Assembly: GCA_007693485.1 (NCBI GenBank)
Contig: REDM01000143.1
Coordinates: 5,803 to 69,802 of the forward strand
DNA: 64,000 nucleotides
Direction: 5' to 3'
From: Spirochaetaceae bacterium
GTDB lineage: Bacteria > Spirochaetota > Spirochaetia > DSM-27196 > PWMO01
The first letter of the stretch is position 1; every line of letters starts with the position of its first letter. The notes beneath the pieces were generated by a model. The model did not search any database. It had not been told where the DNA came from and saw only the letters and a list, made by a program, of their open reading frames with translations. Of this stretch, positions 48,853 through 48,868 are shown one piece after another. Position numbers and translations under genes: made by a program.

Positions 48853-48868
48853 TGGCATGATGTTTGCA
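48853..48868 (+). promoter_or_regulatory. sigma54 (RpoN) -24/-12 promoter: TGGCAT-N5-TTGCA
   Basis: GG at 48854-55 and GC at 48866-67 are separated by 10 nt, a near-perfect match to TGGCAC-N5-TTGCW. There are 28 nt to the sigma gene ATG, with RBS AAGGAGA at 48884-48890. Confidence 0.7.

Follow-up and report, generated by a model that had tools for sequence, protein, structure and literature searches.

A stretch of 64,000 nucleotides (nt) of contig REDM01000143.1, from a Spirochaetaceae bacterium, was analysed as a whole and is referred to here as the window. It carries a near-consensus sigma-54 (-24/-12) promoter immediately upstream of a gene encoding a small sigma-70-family factor. Comparison with related genomes makes it quite probable that the two belong to an enhancer-dependent sigma-54 module, driving an RpoD-like sigma factor which is a paralogue of the Borrelia RpoS. 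The proteins of the window are closest to those of metagenome-assembled genomes annotated as Spirochaetaceae, Spirochaetales and Spirochaetia; since these, as well as the orthologues of the sigma factor, are spirochaetal, the window (58% G+C) is assigned to a free-living spirochaete, of the same class as Borrelia. The positions of the features are reported in Table 1.

In order to collect orthologues, one genome per species was scanned, and 80 loci encoding a sigma factor of the window type (70-90% identity) were obtained. They span Spirochaetaceae, Alkalispirochaeta, Marispirochaeta, Salinispira, Sediminispirochaeta, Treponema/Treponemataceae and Rectinemataceae. Two of them are cut by contig ends, so that 78 could be assessed for the promoter. 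Sigma factors of the window type are called family A, while family B denotes the factors of 279-287 amino acids (aa) which were retrieved by using Borrelia RpoS as a query.

The promoter is composed of the blocks TGGCAT (48853-58), GATGT (48859-63) and TTGCA (48864-68). Its GG (48854-55) and GC (48866-67) are separated by exactly 10 nt, as in TGGCAC-N5-TTGCW, and its 3' end is located 28 nt before the ATG (48897) of the sigma gene. This element, spacing and distance had been proposed in an initial annotation, made from the sequence of the window alone, and are all borne out; the coordinates given there for the promoter, the ATG and an upstream TATATAAAT box (48817-48825) are correct as well, and the AAGGAGA noted between promoter and gene is located at 48884-48890. 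The pattern TGGCAY-N5-TTGCW has a single match in the 64 kb, both strands considered, against 0.09 expected from shuffled sequences. The same annotation had suggested a scan of the genome with a sigma-54 matrix. Performed on the window with a weight matrix derived from 78 orthologous promoters, the window itself being excluded, it assigned 18.6 bits to the site, the runner-up among about 128,000 positions scoring 12.3.

The element is found, at the equivalent place and in the same orientation, in all of the 78 assessable loci. Within the 80 loci the strict pattern gives 67 matches in the approximately 140 nt preceding the start of the sigma gene and just 21 elsewhere (787 kb, both strands counted); 11 further loci contain versions with one mismatch, such as CGGCAC..TTGCA or TGGCAC..ATGCA. 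The logo reads T-TGGCAY-R-N4-TTGCW-T. GG and GC are invariant (79/79), the A and the other bases of the GC block are invariant or nearly so, and four spacer positions and the flanks hold about 0.1 bit. The invariant GG and GC, together with a free spacer, indicate selection on the bases contacted by sigma-54, rather than simple sequence relatedness. The distance between the element and the ATG is 22-34 nt in most assessable loci, which therefore implies a short leader throughout, and a ribosome-binding site of the GGAGG type lies in between in nearly all orthologous loci.

A functionless chance match would not be extraordinary for the window taken by itself, as 9 of 100 shuffles hold one match somewhere. 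Such an origin is nevertheless refuted, for practical purposes, by the 78 loci out of 78 with equal position and orientation, invariant contact bases and free spacer. The site is thus supported as a genuine, selected promoter of the sigma gene, probably used by the sigma-54 holoenzyme, and its conservation makes a cascade from sigma-54 to a sigma-70-family factor the best reading.

The 331 base pairs (bp) separating the sigma gene from the divergent groES hold, in addition to the promoter, two dyads and an A+T-rich stretch. The dyads were detected as TGAC-N-CA words over-represented upstream of the promoters; counted from the T of TGGCA, their right halves begin near -136 and -96. Both are 17 bp long, of 7-3-7 form, and follow the consensus TGNGTCA-N3-TGACNCA or, more finely, TG(G/T)GT(C)A-WTT-TGA(C/T)NCA; the TG(G/T)G bases of the left half, although outside the search pattern, still carry 1.3-2.0 bits. 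In the window the distal dyad is the top match of the dyad matrix (19.5 bits), and the proximal one ranks second (15.6 and 14.5 bits on the two strands), with no other strong match in the 64 kb; their centres are 40 bp apart. When counted in the orthologous loci by the pattern TG-N8-YGAYNCR only, dyads are 66-fold enriched between -165 and -85. At least one is present in 65 of the 78 loci and two in 30, with a spacing between centres of 40 bp in 28 of the latter and of 41 bp in the other 2; equivalents of the distal dyad are found at about -133 to -148. In some loci a co-directional gene with a SEC-C-like motif is located between groES and the sigma gene; the distance of the dyads from the sigma-54 promoter is unchanged there, which assigns them to this promoter rather than to groES. 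A pair of dyads with constant spacing, roughly 100 and 140 bp before a -24/-12 promoter, is the classic layout of a tandem enhancer, and the dyads are likely to bind an enhancer-binding protein.

Palindromes of the 7-3-7 type are common among dimeric regulators, and in two loci (L106 and L130) the murG start itself bears one similar dyad, a position more typical of operators. The dyads could accordingly be operators of an ordinary repressor, or of a sigma-70 activator, unrelated to sigma-54. This is unlikely in view of the tandem pair, found in dozens of genomes at a fixed 40-bp spacing and about 100/140 bp from the -24 element, of the lack of any nearby sigma-70-type promoter on the + strand, and of the association of the dyads with the sigma-54 promoter and not with groES.

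Between the dyads and the promoter, the A+T content of the orthologous loci rises to 0.69-0.75 at -60 to -30, versus a locus mean of 0.46. No match to the integration host factor (IHF) consensus was found there in any of 79 loci. The stretch is probably a region of bending, or of binding of an architectural protein, rather than the -10 box of a sigma-70 promoter. The latter option would make a sigma-70 promoter, for example the TATATAAAT box, the main one, the -24/-12 site being minor, silent, or a repressive site for the sigma-54 holoenzyme. TATA-like words do recur in the stretch, and Borrelia rpoS has an extra upstream transcript which is independent of sigma-54. Further putative promoters have been described for the same gene (PMC1976401). 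On the other hand, the A+T-rich stretch is conserved as a composition and not as a positioned hexamer, the bases of the -24/-12 element are invariant, and no -35/-10 pair on the + strand between groES and the sigma gene passes a consensus scan, in agreement with the initial annotation, which had seen no good sigma-70 pair between promoter and gene. The only good match of the scan, TTGACC-17-TATATT from 48654 to 48626 on the - strand, is a sigma-70-like promoter of groES. A main role for a sigma-70 promoter is therefore improbable, even more so than the operator reading of the dyads.

As a separate observation, about half of the related loci contain, in the gap between groES and the sigma gene and on the strand of the latter, an open reading frame (ORF) of 227-240 aa with a C-terminal SEC-C-like cysteine motif (CxCGSGL...CCGR), for example at 5132-5815 in L008 and at 5101-5823 in L022. 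It is missing from the window. Where present, its 3' end is overlapped by the distal dyad.

The product of the sigma gene opens with region 1.2, at residue 23. An alternative TTG start at 48864 was rejected, since this triplet is part of the -12 block, the ribosome-binding site is placed ahead of the ATG, and homologues align from residues 1-3. Family A orthologues are 70-91% identical across Spirochaetaceae, Treponemataceae and relatives. The protein scores below the cut-offs of the NCBIfam RpoS equivalogs TIGR02394 and PRK05657 (266 vs 378.7 and 256 vs 394 bits), and reaches 298 bits against a cut-off of 555 with the RpoD model, of which it covers only positions 386-629 of 631. Among PDB matches, Firmicute SigA (249 bits) precedes RpoD (214) and the RpoS chains (183-186). 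In an alignment with RpoD and RpoS of E. coli and with Borrelia RpoS, the C-terminal tail is of the RpoD type (HPKRSRFLEAYVA, vs HPSRSEVLRSFLDD in E. coli RpoD). On these comparisons, a group-2-type, RpoD-like sigma factor, with regions 1.2-4.2 and no region 1.1, is the best description of family A. The hairpin that follows the gene has a folding energy of -28.1 kcal/mol (z = -5.9), and none of 200 shuffles is as stable; the sigma gene is therefore taken to be monocistronic.

A difference was also noted in region 2.4 (49213-49245, residues ~106-116), which reads WWIRQAILKAI in family A and WWIRQAITRSI in E. coli RpoD. The threonine replaced by leucine is the residue which contacts the -12 base in RpoD, and for this reason family A and the housekeeping sigma factor may have different -10 specificities.

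The possibility that the window factor is the orthologue of Borrelia RpoS (BB0771) was rejected on the basis of similarity, synteny and bootstraps. Family B (P0139) is 42% identical to Borrelia RpoS (176 bits), whereas the window factor shows 34% identity to Borrelia RpoS (141 bits) and 36% to family B (167 bits). Members of family B, the next matches after Borrelia itself, come from Spirochaetales, Spirochaetaceae and Treponema. Their context is that of the Borrelia gene, flgF/G-flgG-(flgA-flgI)-flgJ-sigma-(polysaccharide deacetylase)-tsaD, as opposed to the position between groES and ppdK which family A occupies in most loci. In neighbour-joining trees, 192 of 200 bootstrap replicates unite Borrelia RpoS with family B, together with two A+T-rich relatives, and none unites it with family A. 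By these sequence criteria the window factor is a paralogue of Borrelia RpoS, the true orthologues being those of family B. The initial annotation had described a sigma cascade with an RpoS-like factor: the cascade from sigma-54 to a sigma-70-family factor stands as the best reading, and the assignment to RpoS is overturned by the cut-offs, the structural matches and the paralogy. Since Borrelia encodes only three sigma factors (PMC3037356), it must lack family A. The two families are likely to coexist in one genome elsewhere, as they occur in the same taxa and identity is at least 70% within family A and about 36% between families.

The Borrelia sequences were reached through published quantitative PCR primers and probe (PMC1976401), which gave a 31-aa peptide and then a draft Borrelia contig (L081; GCA_000502015.1, AYBX01000470.1, 743 nt). 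Three deletions of a single A, all within homopolymer runs, interrupt its rpoS, and one of them is confirmed against the published B31 probe sequence; the frameshifts are most likely sequencing errors, rather than marks of a pseudogene, and the sigma-54 promoter TGGCACGGTTTTTGCA is intact. The N-terminal 221 aa, read across the three frameshifts, were used as the query which retrieved the intact Borreliella bavariensis RpoS, whose chromosomal neighbourhood is L082.

The search for an activator leads to a gene 6 kb upstream, preceded by that of a histidine kinase; the two genes overlap by 4 nt, and the pair is kept in about 60 metagenome loci. The initial annotation had described, at 40147-42758, an NtrC-type activator with a GAFTGA loop and its PAS kinase. 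Pfam domains confirm both: the Sigma54_activat domain scores 235 bits, and the loop is intact, encoded from 41970. Over 448 aa, the activator and Borreliella Rrp2 share 56% identity, with a near-identical helix-turn-helix (HTH), and the kinase is 36% identical to Borreliella Hk2 over its full length (E = 1e-76). By tblastn synteny, the order murG-cvpA-holB-hk2-rrp2 is shared by the window (37304-42758), L082 and about 30 metagenome loci among L088-L154; in the Borreliella locus (13687-18826) Glyco_transf_28, Colicin_V, DNA_pol3_delta2, kinase and activator follow in the order of the window. Orthology to Borrelia Hk2 and Rrp2 is well supported, both by sequence identity and by the shared order of five genes. 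The latter also means that the Borrelia virulence regulators close a housekeeping operon of cell-wall and replication genes.

According to the mechanism proposed, an enhancer-binding protein would oligomerise on the dyads at 48701-17 and 48741-57, the DNA would loop over the A+T-rich stretch, and ATP hydrolysis by the activator would open the complex of the sigma-54 holoenzyme at TGGCAT-N5-TTGCA. The transcript would start near 48879, carry a short leader, and end, as a monocistronic unit, at the hairpin at 49815-61. The RpoD-like product would redirect RNA polymerase to a regulon of its own, so that the module would be one step of a sigma cascade. The activator would be the Rrp2 orthologue, phosphorylated by the PAS kinase orthologous to Hk2. 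The general part of this scheme, an enhancer-dependent sigma-54 promoter, is highly probable; for the action of the Rrp2 orthologue at the sigma promoter the balance is about even.

The Rrp2 orthologue is the only enhancer-binding protein encoded in the window. In at least 7 genome loci, searched with 6-kb flanks, and in the metagenome locus L135, rrp2 is located 5-6 kb upstream of the sigma gene, and no gene for another enhancer-binding protein was found near any of the 80 family A loci. Spirochaetes have, on average, 1-2 sigma-54 activators per genome (PMC3162934). The HTH is almost unchanged between the window and Borrelia, which suggests a conserved DNA target.

Several results weigh against the proposed scheme, or parts of it. 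The linkage of hk2-rrp2 to the sigma gene is limited to the clade of the window, and of the Rrp2-centred metagenome loci that extend 10 kb downstream, most lack the family A sigma gene. A dyad beside the hk2-rrp2 operon was found in 2 of 31 loci only. Purified Borrelia Rrp2 showed no specific DNA binding near rpoS (PMC1976401), and therefore no DNA motif is known for the Rrp2 family. Thirteen of the 78 loci have no dyad matching the search pattern. No rpoN was found in the 64-kb window, nor in the fetched flanks (1.8 Mb); the GAFTGA activator and the conserved promoter lead one to expect it in the genome. The scheme is, throughout, built on sequence comparison.

Some of these results would be accounted for if another enhancer-binding protein, encoded elsewhere, were the activator, Hk2-Rrp2 being near by clade-specific gene order only. 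The confined linkage, the lack of a systematic dyad at the hk2-rrp2 operon and the behaviour of the Borrelia protein in binding assays all fit this possibility, as do the several activator paralogues present in L102, L149, L156 and L166, which show that free-living spirochaetes can have more than one activator. The unlinked activator has against it the lack of any other activator gene linked to the sigma gene in the 80 loci, the low average number of activators per spirochaete and the near identity of the Rrp2 HTH in the two genomes. We regard it as a serious alternative, to which we lean slightly less than to its opposite.

The two dyads seen beside the operon, both in A+T-rich loci, are near-perfect and placed right at the start of murG (TGTGTCATAATGATACA at 5880-5902 in L106, and TGTGTTAAAATGACACA at 2837-2859 in L130). 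They may reflect autoregulation, or chance. Autoregulation of hk2-rrp2 through a dyad or sigma-54 promoter at the operon was not retained as a general feature, 2 loci out of 31 being anecdotal.

In Borrelia, Rrp2 and sigma-54 drive rpoS from TTGGCACAGTTTTTGCAT (PMC1976401; loci L081 and L082), and activation takes place without an enhancer (PMC1976401). The window resembles this system in having a sigma-54 promoter directly before a small sigma-70-family gene, and the Borrelia element fits the family A logo. Kinase and activator are orthologous, within a common murG-cvpA-holB-hk2-rrp2 operon, and in both genomes hk2-rrp2 and the sigma gene lie on one strand, about 6 kb apart. The two systems differ in the target, which is an RpoS paralogue in the window, in its context (groES-sigma-ppdK vs flgJ-rpoS-tsaD), in the position of hk2-rrp2, upstream of the sigma gene in the window and downstream in Borrelia, and in the leader, with about 18 nt predicted for the window and about 50 nt in Borrelia. 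Conserved tandem dyads are present in the window, and there are none before Borrelia rpoS. The initial annotation had named the Borrelia pathway as a precedent: kinase and activator are indeed orthologues of Hk2 and Rrp2, but the case is not one of the same logic in an unrelated lineage. The window genome is itself spirochaetal, and the relation to the Borrelia pathway is one of descent.

Family B provides information on the origin of the Borrelia link. A -24/-12 element is located 30-78 nt before the start codon in 7 of 8 family B loci (Table 1), the Borreliella one included; the remaining locus, L168, has no such element and shows a TATAAT-like box instead. Upstream dyads are absent from all 8 loci, including Borrelia rpoS, in agreement with the enhancer-independent activation reported for the latter (PMC1976401). 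In this small sample of 8 loci, the distribution of the elements suggests that the link from RpoN to RpoS predates Borrelia.

Taken together, small sigma-70-family genes under sigma-54 control occur widely in Spirochaetia, both free-living and host-associated, and the wiring looks ancestral. This suggests, for the Borrelia virulence cascade, an origin in a broader ancestral circuit with two branches. In its full form the proposal is tentative, and falls somewhat short of being probable: in free-living Spirochaetia a sigma-54 cascade under Hk2-Rrp2 would consist of an enhancer-less branch, of the Borrelia RpoS type, and of an enhancer-driven family A branch. If this were true, TGNGTCA-N3-TGACNCA would be the motif of the Rrp2 family, and the Borrelia virulence pathway a reduced remnant, left after the loss of family A and of the enhancer. 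The family A dyads represent the first concrete candidate DNA target for activators of the Rrp2 type, for which no site is known in Borrelia, and make directly testable the question of what Rrp2 binds, and why its HTH has been kept.

Similarities with other systems were also considered. NtrC acts at the enteric glnAp2 promoter from tandem 17-bp dyad enhancers, located upstream of the sigma-54 promoter. The window shares with this system the two 7-3-7 dyads, about 100-140 bp before a -24/-12 promoter, and an activator made of receiver, AAA+ and HTH domains. The half-sites are different, TGCACCA/TGGTGCA for NtrC and TGNGTCA/TGACNCA in the window, and the regulated gene encodes a sigma factor, rather than a function of nitrogen assimilation. 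Flagellar hierarchies in Vibrio, Pseudomonas and Legionella proceed from sigma-54 to sigma-28 (fliA). Links from sigma-54 to sigma-S in Borrelia, and to sigma-32 in enterobacteria, have also been reported (PMC3162934). In the sigma-28 and sigma-32 cascades, as in the window, sigma-54 stands above a sigma-70-family factor; their targets are group 3 factors with known regulons, whereas the window target is RpoD-like, and devoid of region 1.1. Treponema denticola possesses the same two-component pair, Hpk2-Rrp2 (TDE1970/TDE1969), and its kinase has a PAS domain (PMC12070737), as does that of the window. There, Hpk2 senses oxygen through the PAS domain and Rrp2 "remains unstudied" (PMC12070737). 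Rrp2 of T. denticola has no reported target (PMC12070737); the module of the window supplies candidates both for such a target and for the binding motif.

Sigma-54 promoters, tandem enhancers and cascades from sigma-54 to other sigma factors are already known. The Lyme disease agent has its central virulence switch in the Rrp2-RpoN-RpoS cascade. In the literature searched, this cascade is described as a distinctive Borrelia system, and the search returned no report of sigma-54-dependent sigma genes in other spirochaetes. Three elements appear to be undescribed in the literature searched: a second, highly conserved sigma family under sigma-54 control across Spirochaetia, the tandem dyad enhancer of family A, and the sigma-54 elements before the RpoS orthologues of free-living spirochaetes. 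They should interest specialists of spirochaetes and of sigma-54; beyond spirochaetes, the module adds one more cascade from sigma-54 to a sigma factor, of known design.

Table 1. Location of the features of the sigma-54 module, of its neighbours and of the -24/-12 elements at family B loci.
Feature	Locus	Position	Strand	Evidence or remarks
Sigma-54 (-24/-12) promoter, TGGCATGATGTTTGCA	window	48853..48868	+	sequence read, conservation, matrix score
Predicted transcription start	window	48878..48880	+	about 11-13 nt past the -12 GC; from usual sigma-54 promoter geometry
Shine-Dalgarno AAGGAGA	window	48884..48890	+	within the predicted leader of about 18 nt
Distal dyad, candidate enhancer site 1, TGGTATGTTTTGATACA	window	48701..48717	.	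centre about 144 bp upstream of the T of TGGCA
Proximal dyad, candidate enhancer site 2, CGGGTCAATTCGACACA	window	48741..48757	.	centre about 104 bp upstream of the T of TGGCA
A+T-rich stretch, including TATATAAAT (48817-48825)	window	48800..48840	.	between dyads and promoter
Family A sigma-70-family factor, 293 aa, RpoD-like, without region 1.1	window	48897..49778	+	Pfam regions 1.2, 2, 3, 4
Intrinsic terminator, 18-bp stem and U run	window	49815..49861	+	RNA fold
groES (Cpn10), divergent neighbour	window	48299..48565	-	Pfam Cpn10; outside the sigma-54 module
Hk2/Hpk2 orthologue, PAS histidine kinase	window	40147..41322	+	Pfam PAS_4, HisKA, HATPase_c
Rrp2 orthologue, receiver, sigma-54 AAA+ and HTH_8	window	41319..42758	+	Pfam; candidate activator
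murG-like, cvpA-like and holB-like genes before hk2-rrp2	window	37304..40163	+	start of first gene approximate
Family B element, TGGCACAATTTTTGCA	L082 (Borreliella)	9923		
Family B element, TGGCACGGAATTTGCA	L085	7943		
Family B element, TGGCACACATGTTGCT	L170	3963		
Family B element, TGGCACGAAAATTGCA	L171	3944		
Family B element, TGGCATGGTCTGTGCT	L083	~7971		weaker
Family B element, TGGCATGGAATTTGTG	L084	~7971		weaker
Family B element, TGGCACGGTAATTGTT	L169	995		weaker

Some additional features were observed around the two regions. Right after rrp2 the window contains, at 42918-44810 on the + strand, an ORF of 630 aa with no Pfam match; weakly similar ORFs (19-36% identity) are present at the equivalent place in 14 related loci. 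Downstream of rrp2, several Rrp2-centred metagenome loci carry a third sigma-70-family gene, on the opposite strand and in some cases directly adjoining rrp2 (- strand, ~11431 in L118, ~1053 in L139, 6903 in L097, 11587 in L107 and 19172 in L110). Its product is 27-30% identical to the window factor, and belongs neither to family A nor to family B. As for groES, the gene stands alone, with no adjoining groEL and with a gene for a DinG-like helicase on its other side; the order helicase-groES-sigma-ppdK is kept in most of the 80 loci.

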